From positions 1,088,001-1,152,000 of the forward strand of contig OY970343.1 of NCBI GenBank assembly GCA_963717525.1: a DNA stretch of 64,000 nucleotides, read 5' to 3'. The notes beneath the pieces were generated by a model. That model was given only the letters and a program-made list of their open reading frames with translations, did not search any database and had not been told where the DNA came from. Of this stretch, positions 17,104-52,988 are shown one piece after another. The position numbers were made by a program, and so were the translations under genes. Within the stretch, counting starts at the first letter, position 1. The number at the start of each line of letters is the position of its first letter. This stretch comes from an uncultured Methanoregulaceae archaeon (GTDB lineage: Archaea > Halobacteriota > Methanomicrobia > Methanomicrobiales > Methanospirillaceae).

Positions 17104-17194
17104 GATCTTGTTGCGTTAACGGGACTTAACAAAATTAATATCGTCGTGACCTATCAATGTTGACTATTAAAAGTCCCGACAACGAACCAGAACC
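17104..17194. repeat. Dispersed palindrome P1 (subfamily A, 91 bp)
   Basis: Arms gatcttgttgcgttaacgggactt / aagtcccgacaacgaaccagaacc. Confidence 0.85.
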
Positions 17195-17278
17195 CTGATA
17201 ACAATAGAATAAAAATGCTCCCCACTTATTACTATATACTAATGTCCGGAGAGGTAACCCCGGGCAGAGTTTGATACC

Positions 17279-19340
17279 ATGTGGACGCCTGATTTGAGAA
17301 CTCTTTTTCTTGTCCTCTTTCTCGTCAACGTCTTTCTCACACTGATGCTCTTTTCTTTCTGGAAGACCCAGAAGACCCACCGCGGGTTCAAGACATGGAT
17401 GCTCGCCCTGCTGGTCACATCATGCGGGTATTTCCTGTACATGCTCGGCGGATCCGTGCCCGTTCTGCTTTCCTCAACTGTAGGAAATCTTTTGATCCCG
17501 CTCTCGATTATGATGCGGCTAGACAGTACCAGGAAATATTTCCTGTCAAAGGCGCTCTCCCCGATCATCTACAGCGCCCTTATTCCGTCTGCTATTCTGT
17601 TTCTCTATTTTACTTTCAGTTTCGATTCGGTTGTCATTCGTGGCGTGATCATTGGGCTGCTCATCGTTCCCAGCCTCCTTGCGGCCTCCCTCATTGCGAT
17701 TCGATTCCGGGAACTGGAAACCTGGTCGCTCAGGTATGGATTTGCCGCTGCCCTTTTTATCACGGCACTCTTCTGGACTGCAATCATCATTAGAGCGATT
17801 ATCACCCCCGGGGATCACTCGCTTTCAGGCCCGGATCCCATAAATCCCATCTTTTTTACCGTCACTATCCTCATGGATATCGTCGCCACGGTCTTCTTCC
17901 TGTTGCTCAATATGGCCCGGTCCCAGACCGAGCTCCGGCAAAGCGAGGAGCAGTACCCGGAACCTTGCAGACAACCTCCCTGATTATATTATCGTCCACG
18001 ATGGAGAGTTCATTCTTTATGCCAACCCGGCAGCGGCCCGGCTCATAGAACCCTCCCGGGAAACCCTTGTTGGACAATCAATCTATTCCTTCATGACCCC
18101 TGCAAGTGCGGAGGCTTCGAGGACGTTTAGCAAGACAACCCGTAACGGAGCTTCCCCGTCTCCGCTCCGCGAGCTTGATATCCAGCTCAGGGACGGCACT
18201 ATCAGGCACTGCATAGTCAATACCGTGGCAATCAATGACCGGGGTGAGCCTGCATTCCTGTCTGTGATCACCGATATCACCGAACGCAAACAAGCTGAAG
18301 ATGCATTGAGGGAGAGTGAAGAGAAATACCGGGCTTTCTTTCTCACTTCGCGGGATTGCATTTTTATCACTACTTTGGACGGCAGATGGGTGGATTTCAA
18401 CGATGCAGCGGTTGAAATGTTTGGTTATGATAGCAGGGACGATCTGCTCAAGACCAACCTCGTCCTCATGTATGCAAATCCCCGCGACAGGGACACCCAA
18501 ATCGAGTATGTTCATGAAAAAGGGTATTCATTTGAATATCCAGTTGATTTAAAGAAAAAAGACGGGACAATTATCAACGCTCTCATCACCTCAGTTGCCC
18601 GTAAAGATGCATCCGGGAATACTATCGGTTTCCTGGGGTCAGTACGGGACATCACCGACCTCAAGCGGGCTGAAGACAATCTTCGCATGTTAAATAATAA
18701 ACTCAAATTGCTCTCCGGGATTACCCGTCATGATATGAAAAACCAGCTGGTGGCATTAAATGCCTATATCGATCTTTGCATGAATGCAATTGATAACCCG
18801 GCTGAGCTTAAGGAGTTTATTACAAAGGAACTGAAAATCGCCGAGGTTCTCGCAGAACAGATCGATTTCACTGAGGATTATGAAGATATTGGTGCGAAAT
18901 CCTCCGTCTGGCAGAATGTAAGTGCACTTGTGAAAAGAGCAGGAGCTGCTCTCCCCTTGGGGGATATAAGACTTGAAGTCACATGCTGCGCCAGTCTTGA
19001 GGTGTATGCCGATCCCCTGCTCGAAAAAGTATTTTATAACCTATTCGACAACTCGCTGCACTACGGAGGTGAGAACATCACTTCCATTCGTGTCACGGCA
19101 CATGAAACCGATGGCAATCTCCACATCATTTTTGAAGACAATGGGAGCGGTATTAGCGCTGAGGATAAAAAGGATTTATTCACCAAAGGTTTTGGTAAAC
19201 ATACCGGTCTCGGTCTCTTCCTCTCCCGCGAGATACTCTCGATTACCGGCATTTCTATCAGCGAGACCGGTGTACGGGGCAAGGGTGCACGGTTTGAGAT
19301 CGCGGTACCGGAAGGAGCTTTCCGGTTCACTGATCAATAA
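17279..19340 (+). CDS. Membrane-bound PAS-domain sensor histidine kinase (1-nt insertion near 17956)
   Basis: Multi-TM N-terminus, two PAS/PAC regions (DITERK, RDITDLK), H-box ITRHD, N-box NLFDNS, DNG.G, TGLGL; removing one C of TACCCGG joins the frames. Confidence 0.88.
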
Positions 19341-19350
19341 TCAAAAAACA

Positions 19351-19464
19351 GGCTCTGTAGGGTGCTGTGGGGTTGGCGATTGGTGACTGAAATTTCACCT
19401 CGTTAAATTTTCAAATCAGTCGCCATCGCAACAATATATCTACTGAGATTTTTTTTACAGAGTC
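19351..19464. repeat. Palindrome P2: 77-bp subfamily B element (19361-19437) nested in outer ggctctgta...tacagagtc ends
   Basis: Loop tttcacctcgttaaatt shared with the 51020-51097 copy; starts 11 bp after the kinase stop. Confidence 0.7.
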
Positions 19465-19554
19465 GAAAATATTGTTTTTCTCTTATGCAATAATGGAAAA
19501 TTAACCATCATTTTTAGCGACTGTTTTATGAGAAGAAACATACTATGACTCTTC

Positions 19555-20253
19555 GTGGTGAATGAAATGGACTATGGAACCATGATCGGGAATTCTTTTA
19601 CTTATGTAAAAGAGGGTATAATCGACAAAGTGAACACGTGGCTGCTCTTGATTATCGCCACACTTATTCTGGCAATACCCCTGATGGGGTATATCATGAG
19701 CGTATACCGGGGAACCAAACCTGCACCCGAAGTGGATGGCTGGAGTAAGTTATTTGTTGATGGAATTCTCCTGTTGATTGTCGGATTTATCTATGCGATC
19801 CCCATTTTGATATTAGAATTCCTTGTGATCGGTGCAACGTTTGTAACCCAAATGGGGAGTAACCCAACCGCAGCAATGACAGGTCTTGCCGGTGCCGGGA
19901 TCCTTGCAGTTATCCTGATCATAGTCGCAATCATCATTGCCATTGTCGCGCCCATCGGAATGATCCGCTTTGCACGAACCGGGAACTTCGGCGATGCTTT
20001 TAATTTTGGTGAAATTTTTGCCACCATAAAAAAGATCGGATGGCTCTCGTATATCCTTGCACTCATTATCGTTACCATCGTAGTCGGTATCCCGGTTCTC
20101 ATTCTCTGGGCCATCCTTACGGCACTGATCATTGCCCTGCCAATAGTTGGACTTGTTATTGCAGGGATAATCCTCCTCATAGTCCTCCCGATCATTGAGG
20201 TCTTCGAGGCACGGTTTCTTACTCAGGTTTACGAGACTGCCGGAACCGTATAA
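19555..20253 (+). CDS. DUF4013 family membrane protein
   Basis: GY...RG..PAPE...W..LFVDG, RFARTG.FGDAFNF. Confidence 0.8.
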   Translation: MVNEMDYGTMIGNSFTYVKEGIIDKVNTWLLLIIATLILAIPLMGYIMSVYRGTKPAPEVDGWSKLFVDGILLLIVGFIYAIPILILEFLVIGATFVTQMGSNPTAAMTGLAGAGILAVILIIVAIIIAIVAPIGMIRFARTGNFGDAFNFGEIFATIKKIGWLSYILALIIVTIVVGIPVLILWAILTALIIALPIVGLVIAGIILLIVLPIIEVFEARFLTQVYETAGTV

Positions 20254-20341
20254 CTTTTTTTAGATTATTCAAGATAGGTTCTTCGAGGAAATCAAATGCC
20301 GTACTAAAAAAGTTGGGGTATTCTAAAATTTCAACCGTTTT

Positions 20342-20674
20342 TCAGTTGGACTTTTCAGATTCTAGAGTTACAATTTTCTTTGGTCTTCCACGTTTGCGTT
20401 TAGGACCATCGGCGGGTTTAGTTTCGTCCGTTTTGACCTTGCGGGGTCTCCCTCGCGGCCTCTTCTCTTTTTGTACGATTTTTTCATCGGGTTCAACCTT
20501 GCGCGGTCTTCCTCTTTTTCGTTTCTCACCCATGGTAGGAGTGGATTTTATTGGTTTTTCATCAGGAATAACTTTAATTTTTCCATCGGAGACGAATTTT
20601 AACAAAACTTTCTCAATCTCGTCGCCAATGGCACGATTTAATTTTGAAAAATCGCGTGGGGATATTTGATACAT
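20342..20674 (-). CDS. Small three-AT-hook (HMGA-like) DNA-binding protein, copy 1
   Basis: KRGRPRK, PRGRPRK, KRGRPKK; paralog at 45620-45949. Confidence 0.8.
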   Translation of the reverse strand: MYQISPRDFSKLNRAIGDEIEKVLLKFVSDGKIKVIPDEKPIKSTPTMGEKRKRGRPRKVEPDEKIVQKEKRPRGRPRKVKTDETKPADGPKRKRGRPKKIVTLESEKSN

Positions 20675-20790
20675 GGTTTGAAAAAGGATTTCTGAATATA
20701 AATGATTTCTCTTAATATTCCCCTTGCCTTGCGAAATCTAGAACAGTTTTATTAATTTAGTAGGTGGTAGAGATTACCTTTAGATGAATT

Positions 20791-20979
20791 ATGGCCCAAG
20801 AGTTTATCGGCAGGATTTTGTGTAAATTAGGATTTCACAAATGGGGAAAAAAGTACGGTCATGATATGTCTATGTCTAATGTCATTGACTGGACACAAAG
20901 ATGTGTACGTTGTGGGAAATCGAAAACATGGGTTGAAGCAAAACCAAAAAATTATGGGCATAGGAGATCTCGGGATTAA
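20791..20979 (+). CDS. Small Cys/His protein (DUF1660-like)
   Basis: LCKLGFHKW...CVRCG. Confidence 0.55.
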   Translation: MAQEFIGRILCKLGFHKWGKKYGHDMSMSNVIDWTQRCVRCGKSKTWVEAKPKNYGHRRSRD

Positions 20980-20989
20980 TTATTAATTT

Positions 20990-21043
20990 GGTTTTGTCAA
21001 GTTGCCACGAGGTGACAAATCTACTCCAGAAATGGATAAAATC
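20990..21043. repeat. Palindrome P3 (short subfamily C, 54 bp)
   Basis: ggttttgtcaagtt...aatggataaaatc; internal gtgacaaatctac matches P14 gtagatcgtcac in reverse; starts 11 bp after a stop codon. Confidence 0.55.
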
Positions 21044-21092
21044 ATATATCCCAAAGAATGAGATAACGGTTTTGAGATACGATTATTAATCC

Positions 21093-21671
21093 ATGAAACA
21101 AAAAAGGTCCATTATGGGTATTTTCAATAGGCTTTACAATCATTTTTTCAAAAAGAAAGAAAATCCCAATTTTAATTTAAAAGAACTAAAAAGTAATATC
21201 AAGAAATACAATGAAGAAATCCCCGAAACAAAATACAAAAAGAGTGTTGAAGAAACTACCGAATTATACCGAGAAGTTGAATGGAAACCTGATTGTCTGA
21301 TAAAACCTAAATCCAAAGCTAAAGGGGAATCCATAAAATCTCAAAAATTCGGTTCTAAGGGCAATTTGAGTGGATTAAAAGAAGATAATATTAGAGAATA
21401 CCGTGAAATACAATTCGAAGAAACTAAAAAAATAATTGAAGATGAAATAAGACAATTACAACTGATAATTCCCTCGTATGCAGTAAACCCCAATATCCCG
21501 ATTTATTTAAAGCGTCAAGAATATTGGAATAAAGAATGTTGTGCATCATGTTTGTCATGTTCTGATGATGATGGTAGACCACTCCGTTGTGTAAAACACA
21601 ATGTTAAAAATCATAAAAATGGATGTTGTGACGGTTATAGATATTATAACATACAAATACCCGGCAAATAA
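21093..21671 (+). CDS. Hypothetical protein with C-terminal Cys cluster
   Basis: CCASCLSC...C..H...CCDGY. Confidence 0.55.
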   Translation: MKQKRSIMGIFNRLYNHFFKKKENPNFNLKELKSNIKKYNEEIPETKYKKSVEETTELYREVEWKPDCLIKPKSKAKGESIKSQKFGSKGNLSGLKEDNIREYREIQFEETKKIIEDEIRQLQLIIPSYAVNPNIPIYLKRQEYWNKECCASCLSCSDDDGRPLRCVKHNVKNHKNGCCDGYRYYNIQIPGK

Positions 21672-21718
21672 CGATAATATGAGCATCCTTGATAAAATTT
21701 TTAGAAGAAAGAAGCTTT

Positions 21719-21758
21719 GTATCTGTCCATAGTCCGGGTACATCCACGCAACAGGTTC
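21719..21758. repeat. Short repeat P4 (subfamily D)
   Basis: atctgtccatagtccgggtacatcca resembles atctgtcaacagtccgggtgcatcca at 25906; ends cgcaacaggttc. Confidence 0.55.
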
Positions 21759-21870
21759 GAACTTGCCATCCACTCTTTTGTAAAGTCGCTGTATCTTATA
21801 CGCACGATTGTATTTTTAGGATATGAAGGGTCAGAACAGATTATGCGGGATCGGCAATCTGGATCATTTA

Positions 21871-23652: not shown

Positions 23653-23827
23653 TATTCTTGAATCGTGAGTTTGTGACGAAATAGATTACTATGGGTAGCA
23701 CAAATCTTACAAAAAAGATCAATAATTTCGTTGATTTACAATATAAAAAAATATTATGGATCATTACTTAATGTTAGAAAAAAACAAGCAAATAATAATA
23801 AATATCGTATTGGGAGGTAGTAACAGC

Positions 23828-25869: not shown

Positions 25870-25903
25870 CCTTATTGGGAGAGTTGCAATTTACTATTTT
25901 TCT

Positions 25904-29095: not shown

Positions 29096-29188
29096 GGTTC
29101 TGCTGCATTAACGGGACGTAAAGAAAAGGGCTTTGTCGTAATCGGTATCAGTACAGTAACTAAAAAGTCACGATAGCGCACCAGAATG
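29096..29188. repeat. Palindrome P6 (subfamily A, 93 bp)
   Basis: ggttctgctgcattaacgggac / gtcacgatagcgcaccagaatg. Confidence 0.8.
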
Positions 29189-29626: not shown

Positions 29627-29953
29627 TCCTCTCCCAAAAGATCTCGGTTTTGGTTATTTTTTCCTGACCCTTATTTTTTCGCTTAATTGCTATTAAAGGA
29701 ACGAGGTAAAATACAAAATTCAAGGGTTTTCGGTTCCGGAAAATCGTAGTGAGAAAACCGGGGAGGAATCGATAGAATATTGCCCTAATGAAGAACTACC
29801 TGAAAAATGCTTTCTCAACTACCGCAAGGAGATCATGTTCCAGATACGGTTTGTTAAGAAAGTCAGAGGCTGAAATACTCTTTGCCTCATCAATTTTTTC
29901 TTTATTTAGATATGCGGTGAGGAATATGATGAGACCATCGTAACAATGGCGGA

Positions 29954-30619: not shown

Positions 30620-30717
30620 GGCCAGCCATTCCACGATTGGGGGAAATCAGGGTTCCGGGTCTGCAATCGGTTTTTCACCTCGGCATAATATCGATCAACC
30701 GCCAACGCAACAGAACC
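30620..30717. repeat. Palindrome P7 (subfamily B, left arm degenerate)
   Basis: Right arm tcaaccgccaacgcaacagaacc; loop ttttcacctcg. Confidence 0.65.
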
Positions 30718-32043: not shown

Positions 32044-32305
32044 TACGGTTTTCTGTTCTATTTTCCTTTTTTTTACATAAAAGGTAGGGATACACCGTAC
32101 CTTAACTTTTTGAGGTCAGTTGTTTACTTCGGAGAAGGAAGGTCTTCTACAAAGCCAATTATTTATTGATTCATGACAAGTGTTTTTGGTCAATTCTGGT
32201 TGTATCCATATCGGTACTGTTAGAAGATCCGGTGCGGACATAAAAGTCAGAATCCATATCCTTTGAACCCCCACAACTAACCGGATATTCCGGAACGAGT
32301 GCACG

Positions 32306-33532
32306 ATGAAAACACTGATTGAGCATGCAAGAACAGGGATAATTACCCCACAGGTGCGGCTGGTTGCAGAGAAGGAAGGTGTGAATTCCGCGACCCTCTG
32401 CCGGCAGATAGCCGATGGCAGCACGGTGATCATGCAACGCGGTGACCGGCTGGTGGGAATCGGCAGGGGTCTCAGTACCAAGATCAATGTCAATCTCGGT
32501 ACTTCTACCGGGAAGGTAAATGTAGGGGATGAGATCAGAAAGGCCCGGATCGCAGAGGAGTTTGGCGCTGACACGATAAGCGATCTCTCGATGGGCGGAG
32601 ACATCGATGCAATCCGGGAGGAGATATGTTCTGTTACCACGCTTCCCATTACGACTGTCCCGGTATACCAGGCTGTTGTCGAAAATGGCCTTAAGGAGAT
32701 GACTTCCGGCGATATCCTTACGACTCTCCGGAAGCAGGCGGAGACGGGGATAAGTTCAGTTGTTGTCCATTGCGTCAGCAGGGAGATGCTCGACGGATTC
32801 CGGAAAAAGAACCGGGTGCTCGGCATGGTATCCAAAGGCGGTTCGATCACCAGCGCATTTATGCTCATTAACCAGTGCGAGAACCCGTTCGTGGAGCATT
32901 TTGATGAAGTCCTGTCGATATGCCGGAAGCACGATATTGTCCTTTCACTCGGAAACACCGCACGGAGCGGGTGTATCCATGACCGGAGAGACAAAATGCA
33001 GGTTGCCGAGATCCGCCAGAATATTGTACTCGCACACCGGGCGCTGGAGAGAGGGGTTCAGGTTATCATCGAAGGATGCGGCGGTCATATCCGGAGTGAC
33101 CGTATTCCGTCATATATCAAGTATCAAAAGGGACTTTCCCCATTCCCGCTTTTTGTTGCCGGACCATTGCCCACAGATATTGCCATTGGTTTTGACCATA
33201 TTGCCGGCGCGTGCGGTGGGAGTGCCGCAAGTGCTGCCGGGGCTGATTATCTCTGCTATATTACTCCTGCAGAACACCTCGGCCTTCCCACACCGGCTGC
33301 GGTAAAAGAAGGGCTCATTGCTTTCCGGATTGCAGCCCATATTGGTGATACGGTAAAATACGGCCGTGACGCTCAGGACAAAACCGTCGCTGAACTACGG
33401 GCAGCGCTCGATCGCGAAGGCCAGATCCGGTGTTCCATGGATCCCGGGAGGGCGCGCGAGTTATCTGATGGTGAGGCGGAATGCACAATGTGCGGGGAAT
33501 TCTGTGCGATAAAGATAATGAGGGAGTTCTGA
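32306..33532 (+). CDS. thiC: ThiC-family radical SAM enzyme (ThiC or BzaA/B/F-like paralog)
   Basis: TKINVNLGTS, GADTISDLS, TVPVYQ, CYITPAEHLGLP, IAAHIGD, CTMCGEFC. Confidence 0.85.
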   Translation: MKTLIEHARTGIITPQVRLVAEKEGVNSATLCRQIADGSTVIMQRGDRLVGIGRGLSTKINVNLGTSTGKVNVGDEIRKARIAEEFGADTISDLSMGGDIDAIREEICSVTTLPITTVPVYQAVVENGLKEMTSGDILTTLRKQAETGISSVVVHCVSREMLDGFRKKNRVLGMVSKGGSITSAFMLINQCENPFVEHFDEVLSICRKHDIVLSLGNTARSGCIHDRRDKMQVAEIRQNIVLAHRALERGVQVIIEGCGGHIRSDRIPSYIKYQKGLSPFPLFVAGPLPTDIAIGFDHIAGACGGSAASAAGADYLCYITPAEHLGLPTPAAVKEGLIAFRIAAHIGDTVKYGRDAQDKTVAELRAALDREGQIRCSMDPGRARELSDGEAECTMCGEFCAIKIMREF

Positions 33533-33788
33533 TAATGCCGCGGATTTCATGACAGGCAGTGGAGTATAAGCCTCAGTTCATCTCTCATTTTTGAAAAGTT
33601 CCATACATCCTAAACCGCGGGAAAAATACAAGCCGCAAACTGGATCCGAGCGATAGGATTTGATAGGTTGAGGGGCTCAATGTCCCGCCCGGTTTCCGGT
33701 TCGATTTTCCAGCGATTCTCTAGGCAGAAATCTCTCTAAAATTTTAGATTTTACATTATTCCTTTAATAGGAATAAAATGAAATTAAG

Positions 33789-33894
33789 GGTTCTGTTACG
33801 TTGTCGGGGCTTCGTCGAGAAAACCCGGGAATATATGAATTTTCACGATGTAAAATTTGTATAAATAATCAAAGTCCCGAGAAGCATCAGGACC
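33789..33894. repeat. Palindrome P8 (subfamily A, 106 bp)
   Basis: ggttctgttacgttgtcggggctt / aagtcccgagaagcatcaggacc. Confidence 0.75.
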
Positions 33895-34779: not shown

Positions 34780-37345
34780 ATGGTAGAAAAAATTGAAGAT
34801 GGGTCTTTTTCTGAGGAAAATTCAAAATTGAAGCTATTTATTGCATATTCGCATAAAGACAATACCCTTGAAAAAACATTTATTGAAGATTTTAAAACGC
34901 ATATCGCTCCTTTTAAAAACAATTGTTTAGTTGAAGAATGGTACGATCATGAATTATTACCTGGTGATGAATTAGAGAGAATAAATTCCAATTTAGAAAA
35001 TTCGGATATCATTTGTTTATTTCTCTCAGCATATTTTCTGGATTCTCGTGCATGTATGAATGAAAAAAGAAAGGCAATGGAATTTAGAAAAAAGAAGGGC
35101 GTTCAAGTCATGCCAATTATTTTGTCACCATGTGGATGGAAAGAAGATCCTGATATAATCAAATTAAAATCAATGCCAACCGATGGGAAACCAGTCTCAT
35201 CATTTATTGATAAAAATGAAGCTTGGCAGGACGTCTGTGAAGGATTAAAAAAATTGATTGAGCGAGAGACGAGGATAAAGAATCTGACGATAACTGGACA
35301 ATTTAATAAATTTCTATATGATGCAGATTTATTTACAAAAAACCACTCTACTAAAGAAACCGTTTCTTTAAATGACATTTATATTGATACAGAACTTCAG
35401 AAAATTGATAGTTTCAAAAAAATTTCAACTATAATTAATTCTCATGAACTTCTAGATAATCTCTTGTCCGAGAAAAAAATTATTATAGCCGGTGAAAATC
35501 AATCTGGAAAAACAACTCTTTGTAAAAGATTATTTTGCGATTTACGCACTCTAAATTTAATTCCGGTATATGTCTCAGCAGAAAAAATTTCACATCCTGG
35601 TAAGATAGATAATTTTATTGAAAAATCTCTTCATGAACAATATAACAATTTTAACGAGAGTGAACTCAATCGGGAGAAAATAGTTCCAATTATCGATGAC
35701 TTCCATTATGTGGAAGACAAAGAAAAACACATCACGAATTTATTAAAATATTCCTTATGCGTTATCATCGTCGATGAAATTTTCAATATAAATATCAAAG
35801 ATGAAACACTCATCTATTCCTTTACAACTTTCAGAATTAAAGAACTAAAACCGTCAATAAGATATGAGTTGGTAAAAAAATGGGTTGGTTTATCCGATAA
35901 AGGTTTTAGTTACCAAGGTATTGATAATAATGTTGAACTAATAAATAACACTCTAGGAAGAAATATTGGCAAGGGCTTAATACCTGCTTATCCCTTCTTT
36001 ATTTTGTCCACTCTTTTCACCTATGAAACTTTCTTACCGCTTAATCAGGATATTACTTCGCAAGGCCATTGTTATCAAGCGTTCATCTATTATTATTTAG
36101 GAACAAAAAGAGGTGTGAAATTTGATGCAATGGATGTATATTTGAATTTTTTAAGTGAAGTTGCATCTTACATGCATCTAACGAAAAAAAATGAATTGAA
36201 TCCTTATGACTTTTCCAATTTTATGAAAAATTATTCTTCAAAATATAATCTCCCGATTTCACAGGATATTCTTCTTGATAATTTATTCGAAATCTTCTCC
36301 AAAAACAGTTTTAATAATTACAAATTCAAATACCAATGTTTTTATTATTATTTTGTCGCCAAAGCGTTTTCTGATCACGCAGAAGAACCAAAAGAGTGGG
36401 AAAGAATACTAGATATTCTACATAATCTTCAAATTGACGAGAATGCCTATATTACAGTTTTCCTAATTCATCATTCCAAAAAAATCGGAATTTTTGATGA
36501 GATCGAAAGAATTTCATCATCGCTGTTTAGCAATTATCGTCCTGCGACCTTAGATAAAGATGAACTCGGATTTTTCGATGAACAGTCCCACAATATCGTT
36601 AAAGCCGTATTACCTCCGACGAATCATACCCCCGAAATGGAAAGAAATCGAAGATTAAAACTAGAAGATCAAATGGAACAGTCCAGCGATTCCGAAATAG
36701 AACAAGTCAAAGGAAATGGTGCAGCAATCAATGATTTTAGGAAGGCAATAAAAACAGTTGAGGTAATGGGATGCATTATCCGAAACCGTGCAGGTTCTTT
36801 AGAGCGAGATAAGCTGCAAAATATTTTTTTGGACGGTATGAATGTTCATCTTCGATTACTTTCCTCATTTATTAATATAATAAAAGGAGATAATGAGCAA
36901 AAAGAAATTGTTGAATATATCTCAAAAAGATTAAGTCACTTAGATGAGGGGAAGAACCCAAATGAAAAATTAACAGAAGAGAAAAAAAAGAAGTATGCAT
37001 ATAATATTTTTTGGAATGCCAACTTCTTTGTGATTTATGGGATTCTTTATAAAATTGTTCATTCACTTGGTTCTGATAAATTAATTGAAATTTCTAATCA
37101 AATTTGTGAAAATATTGATAATCCTTCATCTATTTTAGTAAAGCATGGAATTCTAATGGGATATGAAAAAAATTTGCAAATTGATGAACTAAATAAACGG
37201 ATTAATGAAAATGATTTTTCAAAGATTCCTAAGAAAGTCGCAGAAATGATTGTAGTAGATTACAGACTCGGTAAATCAGATTACTTATCGTGATAAACAA
37301 CGAATCGAAAATACTTTAAACATATCCAGACATCGATTAAAATAA
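34780..37345 (+). CDS. TIR domain + STAND/NACHT-like NTPase protein (probable 1-nt insertion near 37266; ORF as given ends at 37293)
   Basis: LFIAYSHKD, FLDS.ACMNE (TIR), GENQSGKTT Walker A, IIDD Walker B; alternative frame continues QITYRDKQRIENTL to 37345. Confidence 0.8.
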
Positions 37346-37411: not shown

Positions 37412-37506
37412 AATTCTGTAGAAAAAAAGTTGTCGTGGCTTTTAGTCCTAGGCAAGTATTGATTACGAAGAGGTCATTTCCGGTTAAGTTCTCGTTAACC
37501 AGAGCT
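37412..37506. repeat. Palindrome P9 (degenerate subfamily A)
   Basis: aattctgta...gttgtcg and ttaagttctcgttaaccagagct; ends 9 bp from the stop of the next gene. Confidence 0.5.
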
Positions 37507-38513: not shown

Positions 38514-38603
38514 GGTTCTAATAAACTGATTGAATTTTTGGCTCTGTAGAATCCTTCACCGAGTTAACAGAGCCTCTTTAAGTCTCGTTAACGCACCAGA
38601 ACC
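38514..38603. repeat. Palindrome P10 (subfamily A, 90 bp) containing a nested 35-bp ggctctgt...acagagcc (38540-38574)
   Basis: Right arm ttaagtctcgttaacgcaccagaacc. Confidence 0.7.
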
Positions 38604-38654
38604 TTTGAGAGATAGAAATAAAGATTACCTCGGATATAAACAAAAGTGAATGAT

Positions 38655-43559: not shown

Positions 43560-43637
43560 GGCTCTGTCAAGTCTTCAGTGGTAGCATTAAGCCTTCGTCG
43601 AAGAAAATATGTTGCCATCCGCAGACTTTACAGAGCC
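43560..43637. repeat. Palindrome P11 (subfamily C, 78 bp)
   Basis: ggctctgtcaagtct / agactttacagagcc; fills the gap between two convergent stop codons. Confidence 0.85.
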
Positions 43638-44595: not shown

Positions 44596-44643
44596 GTCTG
44601 CATCCTGTTAAATTATATCCTGTGAATCGTATAAATCTACGGA

Positions 44644-44734
44644 AGTTCTGTTGCGTTAACGGGATTTAAAGAAATAATATCGTTGTAAATCATCAATATT
44701 CACTATTTAACCACTCCGATAACGCATCCGAACC
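44644..44734. repeat. Palindrome P12 (subfamily A, 91 bp)
   Basis: agttctgttgcgttaacgggat / ctccgataacgcatccgaacc; loop similar to P1. Confidence 0.85.
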
Positions 44735-45363: not shown

Positions 45364-45455
45364 GGTTCTGGTACGTTGTAGTTACTCTTAAAATACTGCT
45401 CAGATACCACAACGACAAAGCCACTTTCAATGAGGCTCTTTAACGTACCAGAACC
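45364..45455. repeat. Palindrome P13 (subfamily A, 92 bp, opposite orientation)
   Basis: ggttctggtacgtt / aacgtaccagaacc perfect 14-bp IR; loop is a reverse-complement homologue of the P6 loop. Confidence 0.85.
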
Positions 45456-45619: not shown

Positions 45620-45949
45620 TCAGTCTGATTTTTCATATTGTGGAGTTGCAACTTTTTTAGGTCTGCCGCGTTTGCGTTTTGGGCCATCGGCGGTTTTTGT
45701 CTCATTGTTTTTGACTTTGCGAGGTCTACCCCGGGGTCTCTTCTCTTTTTGTTCGATTTTCTCAGCAGGTTTTACCTTGCGCGGCCTATCCCTTTTTCGG
45801 GTCTCACCGTCGGTGGCGGATTTTAATGATTTCTCATCAGAAATTACTTTGATTTTACCATCGGAGACGAACTTTAACAAAACCTTCTCAATTTCGTTGT
45901 TAATATCACGATTCAATTTAGAAAAATCGCGTGGGGTTATTTGATACAT
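45620..45949 (-). CDS. Small AT-hook (HMGA-like) DNA-binding protein, copy 2
   Basis: 32 of 36 N-terminal residues identical to copy 1; hooks RDRP (degenerate), RGRP, RGRP. Confidence 0.8.
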   Translation of the reverse strand: MYQITPRDFSKLNRDINNEIEKVLLKFVSDGKIKVISDEKSLKSATDGETRKRDRPRKVKPAEKIEQKEKRPRGRPRKVKNNETKTADGPKRKRGRPKKVATPQYEKSD

Positions 45950-46053
45950 ACTCTGAAAAAGGCTATATTAATATAAATTATTTTGTAAATTCAGAGTGCT
46001 ACAATTAATTTCGTTTTGCTGACAGGATCTCCCCAATTATCGCTGATTATAAT

Positions 46054-46411: not shown

Positions 46412-46637
46412 TTTTTCATCCACCCATCTCCCGGCACCGGGTCTTTTGTAGACGGTTCAGAAACCCTCACAGATTGATTCTGTGGGGTTTTCTCTATGCA
46501 GATAGATAAAAGTATTGAGCGAATAAAAGAGGGCTTATTTTTGACTATCGTCTGGGTTTCGCCAGCTGGTGGCAGTGGATCACTTTCACACTGCTCATGG
46601 CCGGATCTTTATCTCCCTCATTGAGTGATCCGGTGCT

Positions 46638-47115
46638 ATGGAGAAAATCCCCGTCCGCAAATACCAGGTAGTCGAGGAAGCAGAGATAAACCTCGTCCTC
46701 CAGTGTAAGGATAGTCATGAATTTTATGAGAGATACCTCAAGGTGTTCCCTGATACCAAAAAAGGTCTCGACAGTATCTCCAAGATCTGGAAACGCAGGA
46801 GTGAATTTGCAAAGAAATGGCCACTGACCACACCTGCAGTGGAAACCGGGACAAAATCCGCACAAGATATCGCGGCTTTAATCGCCGAACAGACAAAGAT
46901 CATGGGCGAGATCTCCGCACTCGTCAAGGAGAGCCTCGAAGTCAACCGGGCAGATCCTTGCAACACTTACACAGCAGAATCAGATCTTAACTGGACATTC
47001 CGAACATACCGCTAGGGAACCGCCAAAAAAATCTTCGCATTACGCCCCTGTGGTACCTCTTCCCATGCAGAAAATAGCGTCTGAGGTACAGACTCCGATC
47101 CTGGTCGGTTCGTAA
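46638..47115 (+). CDS. Hypothetical protein (1-nt insertion near 46949)
   Basis: Removing one G of CCGGG extends the ORF as NRQILATL...PILVGS to 47115. Confidence 0.5.
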
Positions 47116-47129
47116 GTGCCTTCCCATTG

Positions 47130-47325
47130 TTAGATCTTTTTTATCTCTGTCACTTTCAGGATATCGGTTCGGGTCACAATCCCGACGATCCGGCCATCTT
47201 GAACTATCGGAATCCTCCCAATGTTTCGGGCCGACATGATCCTGAAGGCGTCCATGACCGGTGCCGATGGCGGGAGGGTGATCGGGTCGTGGGTCATGAT
47301 ATCGCGGACCTGCATCGTCTCGGCA
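47130..47325 (-). pseudogene. C-terminal CBS-domain fragment
   Basis: VRDIMT.DP...IGRIPIV..G.IVGIVTRTDI; 5' part missing. Confidence 0.65.
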
Positions 47326-47753
47326 TCTTGTTGGGTATTCCAATAATGTTGAACAATATTGCTCCAAAAGATGTTCAAAATATTCTAACGATTTATATTA
47401 CAGTCGATATTGCAATAATTGCTTCATCTTTTTCAATACTTACTATAAACCCTAAGGATATTGTCAACTCACTAAAAAAGAACCAATTGGTAAATATTGA
47501 AAGATTTAAAAACTTCATTGTTACTTCAGTGTTCATCCTATTATTATCAATATTTGATTATTTGCTTACTAATTTGAAAATGGGTAATCCATTGACTGTT
47601 ACAATTTTTGGAATTACAGTTTATGCATTTAACACAATTTTTTGGGTTATAACATTTTTTATGTTTATTTTTGTAACTAATTTAATGTTTTATACGTGGG
47701 TAATATTAGAGGAAATTTTTAAAGAAATATCGGTTCTGTCAAGTCTGCGGTAG
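47326..47753 (+). pseudogene. AT-rich membrane protein, probably 5'-truncated; stop codon lies inside P14
   Basis: Abrupt GC change near 47325; TAG at 47751-47753 is within the palindrome. Confidence 0.45.
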
Positions 47754-47811
47754 ATCGTCACTTTTCTTTGGAGTATCGAATTTCAGAAACAGCCAACAAC
47801 TTGACAGAACC
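47732..47811. repeat. Palindrome P14 (subfamily C, 80 bp)
   Basis: ggttctgtcaagt / acttgacagaacc perfect 13-bp IR. Confidence 0.9.
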
Positions 47812-47843
47812 ATAAAAACCACTTCTGTTTATGAGGAAAACGA

Positions 47844-48767
47844 TTAGCTCCTGTTCCTTCGGAAAAGAAAGATCACACCACACACAGCAAGCGCTCCGAG
47901 AACCGGCATTGCATCTAGTCTGGCATTAGGTGTAGGCGTAGCCGAAGGTATCTCTTGGTTCGTTGTCGTATAGGTAAATGATGCAACCGGTGGAGTTTGG
48001 GGAACAGCCTGCGGTGGGGATATCTCCGTGGTCGTAGCAGAAACAGGAATATTGCTTGTTGTAATAAGCCCGACCGCGCTCGTGTTGCTGCCAGCCGGGT
48101 TGGTTGCCGTGAGCGTTACCGTGTAGGTACCAGCACTCGTGTAGGTGTGGAGGGGGTTCTGGGATGTCGATGTACTCCCGTCGCCAAACGTCCAAAGCCA
48201 CGATGTCGGGGTGTTTTCAGACTCGTCTACAAACTGGACGGTCAGCGGTACCATATCGATTGGTTCGGTTGTCCTGTTTCCGTAGTAGTCAATTTCCGCA
48301 ACCGGAACGGTGTAAACCGAAGGGACTCCGGGAAAGATGAGAACTAATTGTTCCGGTGCAGTAGGGCCCGAGGGAGCGTACACATTTACGACATATTCAC
48401 CGGGTACTGCATCAGGAGTGGGGATCCGGTGCGGTTCTATCCCGAACGTTTCCCAGAGAGATGTTGTAGCATTACAGGACAAGGTATTGATCCCGTTTTC
48501 CCCGGGCTGGATGGATACGTTGTTTGACATATATCCTGACCATCCGCCACCTGGGTTAAAACTGGAACTGTAGATTTCAATACTCAGAGATTCGTTGGCC
48601 GGCAGGTTTGTCGTCCCGTTAATGAAGAATACTTCATCGATTGTGTGGTTTCCGACGGGATCGATTGTGATATAAGGGGTTATATTTTCAGCGCTTGCTA
48701 TCGGGACAATTGTCACTGTTAAAAAGAAAAGTGCAAAAAATGTGAGAAACACTATTTTTGATTTCAT
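47844..48767 (-). CDS. Surface protein: signal peptide, ITIDP/GTTN domain, PKD domain, C-terminal anchor
   Basis: Paralog of 38655-39509; W.WTFGDG..QNP.HTY..AGTYTV. Confidence 0.8.
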   Translation of the reverse strand: MKSKIVFLTFFALFFLTVTIVPIASAENITPYITIDPVGNHTIDEVFFINGTTNLPANESLSIEIYSSSFNPGGGWSGYMSNNVSIQPGENGINTLSCNATTSLWETFGIEPHRIPTPDAVPGEYVVNVYAPSGPTAPEQLVLIFPGVPSVYTVPVAEIDYYGNRTTEPIDMVPLTVQFVDESENTPTSWLWTFGDGSTSTSQNPLHTYTSAGTYTVTLTATNPAGSNTSAVGLITTSNIPVSATTTEISPPQAVPQTPPVASFTYTTTNQEIPSATPTPNARLDAMPVLGALAVCGVIFLFRRNRS

Positions 48768-48835
48768 GTCCTTCACTTTTGTTTTATATTTGAGATTATC
48801 TTCATTTCTCCTTCTCAAATAATGTTATTTAAAAT

Positions 48836-48914
48836 GATTCTATTAAGTTGTCGGCAGGTTGTCACTTTTCTTCGGAGTGTTAACTCTCAGAACTGCCGAC
48901 AACTTAACAGAACC
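48836..48914. repeat. Palindrome P15 (subfamily C, 79 bp; direct repeat of P14)
   Basis: gattctattaagttgtcggcag / ctgccgacaacttaacagaacc; loop gtcacttttctt.ggagt shared with P14. Confidence 0.9.
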
Positions 48915-48935
48915 CCGAGGAGTTATCAGCACCAA

Positions 48936-49468
48936 TCAGCCGCAATAGTGGCAATTTACTAAGCAGGAGAACTGAGCTTTTACTCCAAGCTCGCGCATCA
49001 GAGCAAATGTGTCTAAATAGGAAACTCCGACCCCGTTACAAGCATTCGGGATCGGAATTCTTCTTTTAATGTCGGAATTGTACCTTTCATCGGTTACCAC
49101 TGTAAATCCTTTAGCTAGAGCAAAAGCAATTAACCAACCATCAGCGTTGTTAGCGAATTCAGCTTTCGCGCCAGGGATATACTGAGGCTGAACTGAGCCC
49201 AACCCATAACAGTTGCGTAAGCGTCAATCACATCCTGTTGGTTCGTCGAATCGAACCATTGATGAAAATTTCCACCGATCCAAGTCGTGAGATCGTCATT
49301 ACCTCTGTCAATTTCATCCTTGACTTTGTCAATACTCCTAACCAGTCCACCCCTCGCATGCCTGATTAATGCATCCCAAAAGCCTGGGGCTATATCAAAG
49401 GCGTAATACCTCTTTGCTGATTCGATGAACACATTTGCATCGAGAATGAAAATCCTTGCAGGGCTCAT
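48936..49468 (-). CDS. PIN-domain protein (DUF4411-like), frameshifted near 49192
   Basis: ILDANVFI, FWD.L, ADGWLIAFA, VVTDE, IPNAC. Confidence 0.8.
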
Positions 49469-50670
49469 TCAGATCCGCCCATACCGAGTCTCTTTGCATA
49501 ATTTTCAAAAGTCTCCCCATAGAGCCCGGTCAGGTTATAGGCATCTCGGTACAGTAGATTTCCTTCTCTTACCGCACTTATAACTGCCATGGCGAAACGA
49601 TGCCCAATACGCAAATTCTGGTTGGCATAGAAGTCACCGCCACCTACCTGCCTGCCAGCATTATCGTGAATTTCACGCTCGTATTCTTGATAAAACCCGG
49701 CAAACTCATCATCCTTAATAAGTCCGAGGTTGAGTGTCCTGTAAGCAGCAACGAGCTTGCTTACTTTGAAATGGAGAGCGACAGACTCAAAACGCTCTGC
49801 ATCATCCTTCACCGAAGGCCAGTAGTCTCGTAGTTGTTTTGCCGGGATGAGAAATTCCGCAGCGATACGATTACTTGCCCTTTCTATTTCGTCATTGGCC
49901 GGCCGGAGTTCCTTCAAATCAAAGACAGCGCTTTTTCCAAACCATATATGGGCCAGTTCATGCGCCAAGGTAAACATCTGCGCCGCCTTTCCATCGGCAT
50001 TATTGATAAAAACGAGCGGAGCATATTCGTCTATGAGGACAAAACCTCGAAATTCAGCAACATCCAGTTTGCGATGCGGATTATTTCCAACAATACCATT
50101 TACGACCAGAAGGATGCCAGCCTCCTCTATTTTAGTCCTTAGCTCCTGCAGCGCCTTGGTCCAGTTGGGTTGTTCAGCCGCCCATCTTTCTGAAAGTCCC
50201 AGAGTACGTCTGATTTCGCTTGCGATGTGTTCCGGTTTATCACCGTGATGTACCGAACGGACAAAACTCAGTGGTTCTTCACCTTGTTCCATCAGGTATT
50301 CACGCATCCAGCCTTGACGTTTCTCCATCATTTGGATAGTCTCAATTAAGTCAGCACTGGGTTGTTGTGAGTGATTACCCAAGGTTCGGAAATGGGGGAT
50401 CGGTAATTGCTCGGACGGAGGTTCTGATAGGAAGAAAAAACCCAATGGTGTCGAAGTTGCTTTTGCAAGTTTCTCGACCTCTGGTAATGTCGGGCGGCTC
50501 TCCCCGTTAAGCCACTTTGATATTTTCGGCAGGCTATGTTGAAGGTCATCTTGCCCCCGTCCTGACCGGGCCATCGCCCAACGAAGGATAGATCCACTTA
50601 TTGGGACATGGGGCTTTGCTGAATGACCGTGGTCTTTCCAAATACTTTCGGTTTTCCCATTATCCGACAT
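49465..50670 (-). CDS. HTH + ImmA/IrrE family metallopeptidase
   Basis: N-terminal HTH, FRGF, FTLAHELAH, AAEFL.P; ATGA overlap with the PIN gene. Confidence 0.88.
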   Translation of the reverse strand: MSDNGKTESIWKDHGHSAKPHVPISGSILRWAMARSGRGQDDLQHSLPKISKWLNGESRPTLPEVEKLAKATSTPLGFFFLSEPPSEQLPIPHFRTLGNHSQQPSADLIETIQMMEKRQGWMREYLMEQGEEPLSFVRSVHHGDKPEHIASEIRRTLGLSERWAAEQPNWTKALQELRTKIEEAGILLVVNGIVGNNPHRKLDVAEFRGFVLIDEYAPLVFINNADGKAAQMFTLAHELAHIWFGKSAVFDLKELRPANDEIERASNRIAAEFLIPAKQLRDYWPSVKDDAERFESVALHFKVSKLVAAYRTLNLGLIKDDEFAGFYQEYEREIHDNAGRQVGGGDFYANQNLRIGHRFAMAVISAVREGNLLYRDAYNLTGLYGETFENYAKRLGMGGSE

Positions 50671-50756
50671 GTTACGAATCCTAAATTGTGTCTATGCAGT
50701 TATCTATTATTAATTCGACCTTCATATCTTAAGAAGTCTAGTCGGTACCATTTCGT

Positions 50757-50954
50757 TTGCTTTGCAAATTCCTCCGAAGTGATGTATCCGCAACTATAGA
50801 TGGAACAGGACGATACGGCGATCTCCCGGTTACAGACAAAGCAAAGGAGATTCTCGCGAAATACGAAACGGTCATCCAGCCGACTCCCGAAGTGCTGGAG
50901 CTCATGGAGAAAGTGTACAGGCCATATGTTGCTATTCTGCATACCACGTGCTGA
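50757..50954 (+). pseudogene. C-terminal fragment of an Mth938-like (DUF498) protein
   Basis: GTG.YG.L.V...PT.E....AILHTTC. Confidence 0.5.
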
Positions 50955-51019
50955 AAATACGGTTGCGGCTATGTATTCTCCTGCCTAGACAATTTCGATC
51001 CCCCTCATTTTTAGAGAAC

Positions 51020-51097
51020 GGCACTGTTGCATCTACGGTTGGTGACCCCTTTTTCACCTCGTTAAATTATTTAATCAACCACTAACGCCTCAACACT
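51020..51097. repeat. Palindrome P16 (subfamily B, 78 bp)
   Basis: Starts GGCACTGTTGCA; loop ttttcacctcgttaaatt. Confidence 0.8.
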
Positions 51098-51176
51098 TGG
51101 TGTTTTTTATTGCAAATAAAAGGAAAAGTGTCCAAGATGATTTTTTAATTTAATTAGAATTAAAATTGTCCTAGCT

Positions 51177-51248
51177 GGTTCGGCTGCGTCAGAGAGACTG
51201 GGTTACGACGATATTATTTTTGTTAAGTCCCGTTACCGCAACAGCACC
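51177..51248. repeat. Palindrome P17 (subfamily A, 72 bp, opposite orientation)
   Basis: Rev-comp ggtgctgttgcggtaacgggacttaacaaaaataatatcgtcgt is nearly identical to the left half of P1. Confidence 0.85.
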
Positions 51249-51262
51249 GATTCACCCTATCT

Positions 51263-51964
51263 TCAAGCTGTTTTGCGAAGGAGTTCTTCGATAAGTTCGA
51301 GCTGGATATTCTGGATTTCCAGGAGGTTATGTCCCTGGTTCGTCATGAGATAATCAATTTTCTTATGGAGCCGGTGAATTTCGGAGTCCGTATGGATACT
51401 TACCTGGAAATCACGTTCTGCATGGAGACGGTCTCTTACCTCCTGGCGGTTCTGGCTCATGATAATGATGGGAGCCTGAACCGCAGCAATTATTGAGAGG
51501 ACGAGGTTAAGCAAGATATAGGGATAGGGATCGTAGGGTCTGGATACTAAAATAAAGGAGTTCAGGAATACCCAAAGGAAAAGCAGGCCGGTAAAAACCC
51601 CGAGAAAAATCCAGCTCCCGGCAAAATCTGCGAATGTGTCAGAAAGGCGTTCGCCAAAGGTCATCCCCTTTTCATATTCGACATTTTCATTTTTCGGGAG
51701 ATGATCCTCCACCTTCATGTCATTATTGACGGTTCCTTGGAGCAAGGCATACGCATTTTTTTCCTTCTCTACTTCATCCCGAACATACTGTATCCTGAAC
51801 CGGTTAAGATCAGTCTGACAGATGTATCCTTCAGATGACCACGCCGGATATTCCTTTGTGATAATATCAACAATCGATGCTGGAACCAGTTCTGCGGGAA
51901 TAAGGTCATTTTTCGTCTTTTGTCCCCTGCAAATCTGGCAGGGAAATGTCTCCTGATCCACCAT
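51263..51964 (-). CDS. DUF1003 domain membrane protein
   Basis: GERLSD..A.FAGSW, DPYPYILLNL.LS..AA.QAPII.MSQNRQ..RDR. Confidence 0.88.
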   Translation of the reverse strand: MVDQETFPCQICRGQKTKNDLIPAELVPASIVDIITKEYPAWSSEGYICQTDLNRFRIQYVRDEVEKEKNAYALLQGTVNNDMKVEDHLPKNENVEYEKGMTFGERLSDTFADFAGSWIFLGVFTGLLFLWVFLNSFILVSRPYDPYPYILLNLVLSIIAAVQAPIIIMSQNRQEVRDRLHAERDFQVSIHTDSEIHRLHKKIDYLMTNQGHNLLEIQNIQLELIEELLRKTA

Positions 51965-52022
51965 TTTATTTTTCCTCTTATCCTTTCAATGGATCTTCGG
52001 GTTCTAATTACTTATCTGGATT

Positions 52023-52118
52023 AATTCTGTTGCGTTGTCGCGCTCTGCTACCTTGTTATGGGATCGTCAACTTTCCCTCTCATGAAAATATACGATCCCT
52101 CAACAAGTTAACAGAACC
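52023..52118. repeat. Palindrome P18 (78-bp subfamily C at 52041-52118) abutting a truncated subfamily A arm (52023-52040)
   Basis: cgctctgctaccttgttatgggatcgt / acgatccctcaacaagttaacagaacc; preceded by aattctgttgcgttgtcg. Confidence 0.8.
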
Positions 52119-52147
52119 TCATTTAATAATAATTAACCGAAAATTCA

Positions 52148-52225
52148 GGTTCTGTTATGTTTGCGGGTGATATGTAAATTTATCTGAGGTAGAAAACCAC
52201 TACCAACCGCAGACACAACAGAACC
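52148..52225. repeat. Palindrome P19 (subfamily B, 78 bp, opposite orientation)
   Basis: ggttctgttatgtttgcgg / ccgcagacacaacagaacc. Confidence 0.9.
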
Positions 52226-52277
52226 CCCATTTTCTTGGACAGAAATGACAGGAAAAACAATTTCACTCGTAATAAGG

Positions 52278-52667
52278 TTACACGGTAGAGGATCCCAGGA
52301 TGTGAGGTAGAAGCACGGTTGTGTTATTGAGGACAACAATGGTATACATGATAATTAATGATGCGTAAAGCACCATGCCCGATCCCTTTACCCGGGCCTC
52401 TGCATTGAGAGCGACGGGGATGACACAGATGATAATTCCTATTTTAAGGAGGATATGCAGAAACGGCATGGTGACAACACCAGCCATCATCGGGTTGAGC
52501 TCGGTCCCCCCCATATTGAGAATGAGCTGAGTGGTAAAGATATCAAGAAGGAAAAGATCCGCAAGGATCAGTGAGAGAAGGATGATCCAAACGAAGACCC
52601 CTGTACCGGGACCGACGTTTTTCGGGAAGAGAAGATTTACCGACCGGGCGGTTCCTTCTAAAGCCAT
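52278..52667 (-). CDS. DUF5658-like membrane protein
   Basis: LDIFTT..IL..GG.ELNP.M, LLK, VV.NN. Confidence 0.7.
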   Translation of the reverse strand: MALEGTARSVNLLFPKNVGPGTGVFVWIILLSLILADLFLLDIFTTQLILNMGGTELNPMMAGVVTMPFLHILLKIGIIICVIPVALNAEARVKGSGMVLYASLIIMYTIVVLNNTTVLLPHILGSSTV

Positions 52668-52908
52668 ATTCTCCAGTAATCGTTTTTTATTTAAATAATT
52701 TTCTCAAACGATATAATCGATATTAACAGTTTTTACAGGAAATACTTACCATTTTAAGCGTATTTTGTGGAATTTTAGGACAGTTGTTTTGATTGAAATT
52801 ATTGATTTATTAAATAAAATACATTAATTTTCTTGCTTTATCTCCCAGATATCTCCCACATTTTAAGATTTTTATCAGATTATTTGACCGAAGATAATTG
52901 GTTTAAAA

Positions 52909-52988
52909 GATGCTGTTGCATCTACGGTTGGTAGGGGGGATTTTCGCTTCGCAAGAATTCGCATATCAACCGCAGACGCAACAGAAGC
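52909..52988. repeat. Palindrome P20 (subfamily B, 80 bp)
   Basis: gatgctgttgcatctacggttg / caaccgcagacgcaacagaagc. Confidence 0.85.

Follow-up and report, generated by a model that had tools for sequence, protein, structure and literature searches.

The 64,000-nucleotide stretch of DNA analysed here (the window, G000:C1:1088001-1152000) comes from the genome of an uncultured Methanoregulaceae archaeon, G000, which consists of one contig of 2,288,003 bp with 54.5% GC and is 87% complete. The window contains some 17-20 imperfect palindromes, either 78-80 or about 92 nt in length, every one of them intergenic and with ends of the form GGTTCTGT...ACAGAACC, and the same genome carries two IS6-like transposons with ends of the same kind. 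A preliminary description of this DNA had reported about 20 non-coding imperfect palindromes with common ends and shared loops, and had proposed that they belong to a new system for the capture and shuffling of gene cassettes. The presence of the palindromes was confirmed by an excess of the end motif GGYTCTGT (15 in the window vs 2.78 expected, 15 being reached by none of 100 shuffles), by inspection of the listed copies, whose loops sorted into groups, and by 17 profile loci and 14 covariance-model loci.

A strict palindrome scan of the whole genome yielded 20 matches, 19 of them convincing, with lengths of 78-80 or 92 nt, and a profile built from these 19 detected 64 merged loci at E<=10 (17 in the window), part of them spurious or half-elements. 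A covariance model (R1) was prepared from an alignment of 30 copies of the 78-81 nt class, oriented by loop similarity; RNAalifold recovered nine of the 22 stem pairs on this alignment, and the full 22-pair stem used for counting and for R1 was specified by hand. On that stem, arm pairing was seen in 83.2% of 655 cells, compared with 72.3% in shuffles and 31-43% with slid partners, and two-sided changes were present in 15 of the 22 pairs. The R1 scan of the genome gave 89 matches counting both strands, corresponding to 50 distinct loci at E<=0.1, distributed in about 11 genome regions, of which the largest are the window (n = 14), 1692-1734 kb (n = 9) and 1268-1307 kb (n = 7). The palindromes are statistically solid and about tenfold enriched in the window, yet not peculiar to this island, as had been supposed, since 36 of the 50 R1 loci are located outside it, in about 10 other places. 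Copy length ranges from 78 to 106 nt, and nearest-neighbour identity among the G000 copies peaks at 90%, with 80% as the median. Mean GC near the palindrome loci is 48.4%, against 54.5% at random positions, and segments below 50% GC hold 56% of the loci and 14% of the random positions. A scan of the 11-56 kb part of the window with Rfam at gathering scores gave no family match.

The leftmost palindrome in the window (16821-16896, no strand assigned) has degenerate ends and matched R1 (E = 5.5e-8) and the profile. It is followed by an A-type palindrome of the 92-nt class (17104-17194, + strand; R1 E = 3.3e-5, and profile), copy P1 of the preliminary description, with a duplicate edge 28 bp from its right tip. 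A B-type palindrome with a decayed right end (19361-19440, - strand; profile and R1) lies within a short outer pair (GGCTCTGT at 19351 and ACAGAGTC near 19460), next to a DUF4013 gene block (19488-20279, + strand) and a left-end remnant, GGTTCTTCGAGG (20277-20288, + strand); full left ends occupy the same place 3' of DUF4013 in the copy of this block at 1708 kb of the genome and in genome G041. At 20990-21015 (+ strand), where a full palindrome had been listed, inspection revealed the left half of a C-type element, which was missed by the profile and R1 and for which no right arm was found. An A-type palindrome (29096-29188, + strand; inspection and profile) precedes a partial B-type copy with an intact right tip, previously placed at 30620 and actually located at 30638-30717 (- strand; profile). 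Next comes a copy of the thiC locus (32062-33782, + strand), 97.2% identical to the native locus (genome 121527-123247), which stops 6-7 bp short of an A-type palindrome of 106 nt (33789-33894, + strand; profile and R1), at whose right tip a GNAT block begins. The copy listed at 37412 was found by neither model and is degenerate at best.

In the right half of the island, an A-type palindrome (38514-38606, no strand assigned; motif count, inspection and profile) contains a nested 35-nt mini-palindrome at 38540-38574, and a 78-nt palindrome (43560-43637, + strand; R1 E = 2e-12, and strict scan) separates convergent genes. Two A-type copies, at 44644-44734 (+ strand; inspection, profile and R1) and 45364-45455 (- strand; 92 nt with 14-nt perfect tips; strict scan and inspection), are followed by two C-type copies, at 47732-47811 (- strand; R1 E = 1e-15) and 48836-48914 (- strand; R1 E = 5e-17, and strict scan), by a B-type palindrome with a decayed right end (51020-51098, - strand; inspection, profile and R1) and by a shortened A-type copy (51177-51248, - strand; inspection and profile). 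At 52023-52118 (+ strand; profile and R1) an A-type left end cut after 18 nt (52023-52040) adjoins a D-type palindrome (52041-52118); the latter had been listed, and the truncated end abuts on its left. The cluster is completed by two B-type palindromes, 52148-52225 (+ strand; R1 E = 2e-15, and strict scan) and the final one, 52909-52988 (- strand; strict scan and R1). Neither 1-11 kb nor 53-64 kb of the window contained a model match, as described before. Orientation is mixed within the window, and comparison with the open reading frames (ORFs) and domains placed the palindromes in spacers at 5' and 3' gene ends alike; many are located just 3' of stop codons, as had been noted, and others stand at the 5' ends of genes. 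An A-type left end cut after 18 nt and directly adjoined by the next element was observed both here (52023-52041) and in G041 (L050, about 6150-6170), which suggests a preferred break or insertion point within the arm.

Matches to the IS6/IS240 DDE domain were found in two G000 genes, encoding proteins of 394 and 398 amino acids (aa). Both pass PF13610 (55.4 and 50.4 bits, cut-off 27) and have a SWIM zinc finger, a Zn ribbon, a helix-turn-helix (HTH) region and the DDE domain. The best model for the 394-aa transposase, the only one scanned against NCBIfam, was IS6 (NF033587), with 113.6 bits and a cut-off of 125, followed by IS1 through the Zn ribbon. The first gene lies within a 6,325-bp element (2070743-2077067) with the ends GGTTCTGTTGCGTC... 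/ ...GACGCAACAGAACC and the 8-bp duplication CCCTTAGT, inserted between a thermosome gene and phosphoribosyltransferase genes; it comprises 8 ORFs, including an N6/N4 DNA methylase and an HNH nuclease, with up to 7 of them as passengers. The second gene is in a 3,963-bp element (1834962-1838924) with the 8-bp duplication TCTTAAAA. Both elements have palindrome arms as ends and perfect 8-bp duplications. The 20-kb contexts of nine of the transposase loci in other genomes of the genus were examined, and six further elements with the same type of end and perfect 8-bp duplications were detected in G069 (n = 2), G058, G067, G041 and G048, so that 8 of the 12 full-length transposase genes examined are in elements with 8/8 duplications.

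These transposons measure 3,426-10,983 bp and have cargo genes aboard, and are not the compact single-ORF elements of 0.7-0.9 kb typical of IS6. Their ends have the general form GGTTCTGTTGCG... / ...CGCAACAGAACC, in which the IS6 'caaa' motif is absent, and vary in the way that the palindrome arms do (...TTGCGTTGTCGGGAC..., ...TTGCGTCTGCGGTTGAT... and ...TCAAGT...), matching them subfamily by subfamily. The first 11 nt are identical to the IS257/IS1216 end as quoted in the preliminary description. The GG tips, the cTGTt motif and the 8-bp duplication are IS6 hallmarks according to PMC7986276. In transposon ends at L031 (10425-10485), L035 (16850-16941) and L039 (6370-6454), the inner arm motif (CGGGACTT/AAGTCCCG or CCAACCG...ACTTATCA) recurs once or twice in subterminal position, unlike the simple 15-20 bp ends of IS6. 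Insertions were observed 6-10 bp downstream of TATA-like boxes in G000 (2070743 and 1834962), L031 (15456), L032 (12643) and L039 (11616); the promoter-like sequence TATATAGAACCACAAACCAATTTTAGTGCTAAAAGTGG flanks insertions in three genomes, and one insertion is 62 bp upstream of a thermosome gene.

Six junctions composed of a right end, 8 bp and a left end were identified among the long elements, indicating that newly arriving elements insert again into the target that was regenerated next to an end already in place. Three successive junctions in G048 share TTTTTTGG, and the middle element has been cut back to a 3' fragment of the transposase gene that starts exactly at the 8-mer. The junctions are located at L037 8123-12912 (G048), L031 10416, L035 16941, L039 6454, and G000 1838924 and 526280. 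At E<=1e-20 a search of the family gave 770 proteins, including some from Methanoregula sp., under generic names such as 'DDE-type integrase/transposase/recombinase' and 'transposase-like protein', and a sequence search of PDB with the transposase gave no match.

An 8-bp target duplication was found for none of 113 palindromes in nine genomes, the maximum being 5 of 8 matches. The 41 copies from G000 had a mean of 2.44 matches of 8 (control 2.14, maximum 5), the 40 copies from seven other genomes a mean of 2.25 (control 2.1, maximum 5), and the 32 copies from G069 a mean of 2.0 (maximum 4), which extends the preliminary description's failure to see duplications on the copies checked to 0/41 in G000. 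The absence of duplications is not simply a matter of decay, because at 80% identity about half of any true duplications would be expected to retain matches at seven or eight of the 8 positions. As is usual for MITEs (miniature transposable elements bounded by inverted repeats), the palindromes are small, non-coding, multicopy and provided with both ends of an autonomous element; they lack the flanking target duplication of the parent family. The two classes form a natural contrast, with 8-bp duplications on all eight long elements for which both ends were identified and on none of the 113 end-pairs, and this bears directly on the question whether the gene islands are shaped by unresolved copy-in transposition or by exchange targeted at ends. 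A wider scan with the end profile also pointed to a possible cargo element of 5.8 kb without transposase (genome 520460-526280), with the flanks GTGTTGTC / GTGTGGTC matching at 7 of 8 positions; its ends are of unlike types, and the match may be due to chance.

A self-comparison of the genome yielded 42 dispersed duplicates (>=250 bp, >=80% identity) with 168 edges. Counted by distance to a palindrome tip, 4 of these edges were at no more than 3 bp, 9 at no more than 15 bp and 15 at no more than 60 bp. When the tips were shifted locally by 150-1500 bp in 1000 trials, 0.24, 0.95 and 3.7 edges were obtained at these distances, and no trial reached the observed numbers. The copy of the DUF4013 block (genome 1707514-1708307, 794 bp, 96% identity) starts one base past the right tip of one palindrome and ends at the left tip of the next, and the palindromes to the left of the two DUF4013 copies are 62% identical. 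A 1,043-bp duplicate, 97% identical to genome 1305094-1306136, ends exactly at the right tip of the partial B-type copy (30638-30717), and likewise at a right tip at the other locus. The GNAT block abuts the right tips of palindromes of unlike subfamilies at two loci, the palindromes beside it being 53% identical, and a core-gene segment copied to genome 1302171 begins 11 bp past a tip. The miniature copies are old, by the identities given above, and several of the block duplications at their tips are younger (96-97%).

Regarding the distribution of these elements, the preliminary description had suggested a covariance-model scan of this genome and of relatives in the order; R1 gave 50 loci in G000 and, among 24 genomes of the genus, matched 9, and the 16 genomes from other genera of the order had no match. 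Transposase homologues were present in 10 of 60 other genomes of the genus, and all five further genomes with close homologues contained palindromes, with 7 to 73 matches each. A 17-kb array of 12 palindrome copies was found in G069. Blocks of the window recur singly in unrelated contexts of other species, with 70-98% identity; the matches of high identity (98% in G093, 97% in G081) stop at contig ends, where the far edges are unreadable.

The common ends, the co-occurrence with the transposase, the clustering in low-GC, variable DNA and the lack of target duplications on the miniatures are all observed, and they argue that the palindromes are very probably miniature elements, unable to move on their own, that derive from a family of IS6-like transposons restricted to this genus. 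An IS6-like origin is highly likely from the sequence of the ends and of the transposases, and agrees, as far as origin is concerned, with the earlier suggestion of IS6-derived miniature elements mobilised in trans; two IS6-like DDE transposases are encoded inside elements with palindrome-arm ends. Each palindrome is built from two terminal inverted repeats, left and right, of about 25 bp, with a subfamily-specific loop of 30-45 nt between them. The autonomous relatives encode the transposase of about 395 aa (SWIM, Zn ribbon, HTH and DDE), carry cargo, insert with 8-bp duplications and often enter the regenerated 8-bp target beside a resident end, giving tandem arrays. The transposase is expected to act in trans on the miniatures by the routes of IS6/IS26, with copy-in events that could not be resolved across an 80-bp repeat and with adjacent deletions and exchange targeted to an existing end both taking place. 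Under this model no miniature would end as a plain insertion bearing a duplication of its own; the tips would instead become the joints at which blocks of genes are deleted, duplicated and re-inserted, and the island would end up split into units of one to a few genes. A long element should be resolvable by homologous recombination and an end-pair of 80 nt hardly so, which would account for the contrast in duplications and for the end-pairs serving as joints. A role in cassette shuffling is plausible but tentative: the coincidence of duplicate edges with tips and the absence of target duplications are suggestive of the assembly of cassette arrays that had been proposed.

Several observations weigh against this interpretation. 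For four of the 12 transposase genes either no matching end pair or no duplication was found, the 394-aa transposase scores under the NCBIfam IS6 cut-off, and the transposons exceed every listed IS6 member in length several-fold. The single-contig, 99%-complete genome G020 has palindromes, and no transposase was found in it. The identity between G000 copies, at most 90%, gives no sign of present activity. No pair of palindromes shares the 8-bp duplication expected from a recent unresolved cointegrate or inversion, in agreement with chance: when flanks were compared across pairs in direct and inverted orientation, the only shared 8-bp flanks in G000 were those of the 6.3-kb transposon, near-matches with at most one mismatch numbered 9 vs 1-8 in shifted controls, and G069 had none. 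Duplicate edges, like palindromes, are intergenic, a confounding that the local-shift control removes in part only. Finally, gene order was unchanged across 37-54 kb of the window in contigs from two other studies, with no joined or circular variant; this comparison was based on contigs of four runs from two studies and on 36-56 kb of the window, and contigs drop rare forms; the circular junctions for which the preliminary description had proposed to search the reads were absent from the contigs. The joints listed in the read-derived contigs are short-sided joins through repeats, and are neither support for nor evidence against excision, circles or variants.

The alternative that best withstands these data is that the palindromes are passive miniature transposons, old insertions that survive in permissive AT-rich intergenic DNA and move no genes, the coincidence with duplicate edges merely reflecting that both are intergenic. 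The age of the copies (no more than 90% alike), their exclusively intergenic, low-GC location, the constancy of gene order in independent samples of the strain and their persistence in G020 without a transposase would all fit. As the preliminary description had anticipated for plain MITEs, copies are scattered genome-wide; ordinary target duplications are missing, however, and duplicate edges coincide with the tips. None of the 113 copies has a trace of a duplication (means of 2.0-2.4 of 8 vs about 2.1 in controls), tips and edges of 96-97% identical duplicates coincide to within 1-2 bp, and the same block stands beside unlike palindromes, so that purely passive insertion is unlikely, if still a serious contender.

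The 80-nt repeats could also act as mere portable homology, on which host homologous recombination swaps the intervening blocks and for which no transposase is needed. Block edges at tips, the lack of duplications, arrays of mixed orientation and palindromes in transposase-free genomes are compatible with such exchange; the palindromes flanking the DUF4013 (62%) and GNAT (53%) copies are nevertheless too dissimilar for it to be efficient, and the edges are at the outer tips and not within the repeats, which makes this explanation improbable. Slightly less credit is due to the idea, itself compatible with a transposon origin, that the palindromes have been co-opted as structural elements, for instance hairpins in RNA or DNA with a terminator, stabiliser or operator function. 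Compensatory changes do keep the stems, and many copies lie just past stop codons, some of them between convergent genes, but about half of the window copies are upstream of genes, the Rfam scan was negative, and covariation is expected without any hairpin for two ends bound by one transposase.

The preliminary description had also considered attC-like hairpins recombined by the tyrosine recombinase of the island (13224-14690, + strand, with a coiled-coil tail), as in an integron. Imperfect palindromes of constant length with covarying stems do separate single-gene units, and three of the larger clusters have a paralogue of the recombinase next to them, but this very improbable reading was rejected because the enzyme is not an integron integrase (17 bits against a TIGR02249 cut-off of 265), it does not co-occur with the palindromes across 40 genomes, several clusters have no recombinase nearby, orientation is mixed, and the conserved tips are the ends of transposons with 8-bp duplications. 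The recombinase scored 43.9 bits with the XerA model (cut-off 220), and its homologues were detected in 7 of 24 genomes of the genus, in just one among the seven clearly palindrome-positive genomes of the genus, and in three genomes of other genera without palindromes. A paralogue of it is carried by a 2.4-kb inverted duplicate, 99.4% identical (genome 152337-154726 and 1271502-1273895), in whose second copy a frameshift interrupts the gene past about 290 aa.

IS26 arrays are the main builder of multi-resistance regions in bacteria, by a mechanism that is still debated. In PMC7986276, IS26 and its relatives are described as forming copy-in cointegrates, losing flank repeats through intramolecular events and favouring conservative integration beside an existing copy, modes that yield element-gene-element arrays without duplications. 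The miniature and transposon family resembles this group in the Pfam IS240/IS6 transposase, the GG tips and CTGTT motif and the 8-bp target duplications, and in the loss of flank duplications and in duplication-free arrays of elements and genes (PMC7986276). It differs in its transposase, which is about 395 aa long, carries a SWIM domain at the N-terminus and an IS1-like Zn ribbon and scores below the NCBIfam IS6 cut-off, in elements of 3.4-11 kb with up to 7 passenger ORFs, in the subterminal repeats of the ends, and in that the punctuating units are gene-less palindromes of 80 nt and not full copies of an insertion sequence. The same source gives 0.7-0.9 kb for IS6 members, names a single passenger-carrying one (ISDsp3) and places zinc-finger IS6 transposases mainly in Clostridia (PMC7986276). 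Only two IS6-family MITEs from ISfinder, MITEBth2 and MITEHarch3, of 227 and 336 bp, are mentioned in PMC7986276 and PMC6807381. They likewise have both ends of an insertion sequence with no transposase gene between; judging from their descriptions, the palindromes differ in measuring 78-92 nt, two ends plus a short loop, and in occurring as several subfamilies at 50 loci in one 2.3-Mb genome, with duplications on 0 of 113 copies.

Integron attC sites are comparable as imperfect palindromes of constant length, conserved in structure more than in sequence, between mostly single-gene units of unrelated function; here, in contrast, there is no IntI-type integrase, no RYYYAAC...GTTRRRY cores at conserved positions, orientation is mixed, the copies are spread over about 11 genome regions and the tips are transposon ends. 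Repetitive extragenic palindromes and bacterial interspersed mosaic elements (REP/BIME), with their REP-associated tyrosine transposases (RAYT), share the condition of short, multicopy, intergenic palindromes without target duplications; they differ from the present ones, whose arms are ends of DDE transposons, and no match to the Y1/RAYT transposase (PF01797) was found in the 87%-complete G000, while control genomes do match. No description of the elements reported here was found in the openly available literature on IS6-family MITEs in archaea, Methanoregula MITEs and IS26 translocatable units, a scope outside which subscription journals and ISfinder fall. They represent a branch of IS6-like transposons in archaea that has not been described before, with cargo genes, stacking in tandem and miniature palindromes lacking duplications, and a transposon family that is abundant and has so far received generic annotation only is thereby named. 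In methanogens from soils, bogs and sediments, according to run labels, the cargo of this family includes restriction-modification genes among others, and its palindromes are a marker for variable islands in these genomes.

By analogy, the palindromes might constitute a minimal archaeal counterpart of array building by IS26, in which end-pairs of 80 nt would be docking sites for a trans-acting SWIM/Zn-ribbon IS6-like transposase, a possibility that we regard as rather doubtful. If it held, the transposase would join, excise and re-insert blocks without duplications while the full transposons would stack in tandem on the 8-bp target that they regenerate, and together this would produce the accessory and defence islands of the genus and fill the role of an integron by means of a DDE enzyme. 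The family is a distant archaeal relative of IS26, with a repeated unit reduced to its two ends. Calling it a new capture system was an overstatement, the nearest known behaviour being that of IS26.

As for the island itself, uvrA on its left is conserved in five relatives, and the DNA on its right is located elsewhere in their genomes, so that the island cannot be framed as a single insertion; no tRNA genes were found within the window as integration targets. Defence-type genes are present, encoding a TIR-STAND NTPase, a HEPN protein and an M78-peptidase/HTH protein (34780-37293; 11351-12289; 48936-50670), and the last of these genes adjoins a DUF4411 gene split into two ORFs. The second thiC locus (32062-33782) includes its leader; at the Rfam gathering score no thiamine pyrophosphate riboswitch was recognised. 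Near block edges, at 17002-17029, 29683-29710 and about 33755 of the window and at about 136884 of the genome, a recurrent palindromic motif similar to TTCCTATTAAAGGAA was observed, and one copy forms the left boundary of the 1,043-bp duplicate. The - strand of the island also encodes, 25 kb apart, two small AT-hook proteins that are paralogues of each other (20342-20674 and 45620-45949), with 79-84% identity between their DNA sequences.

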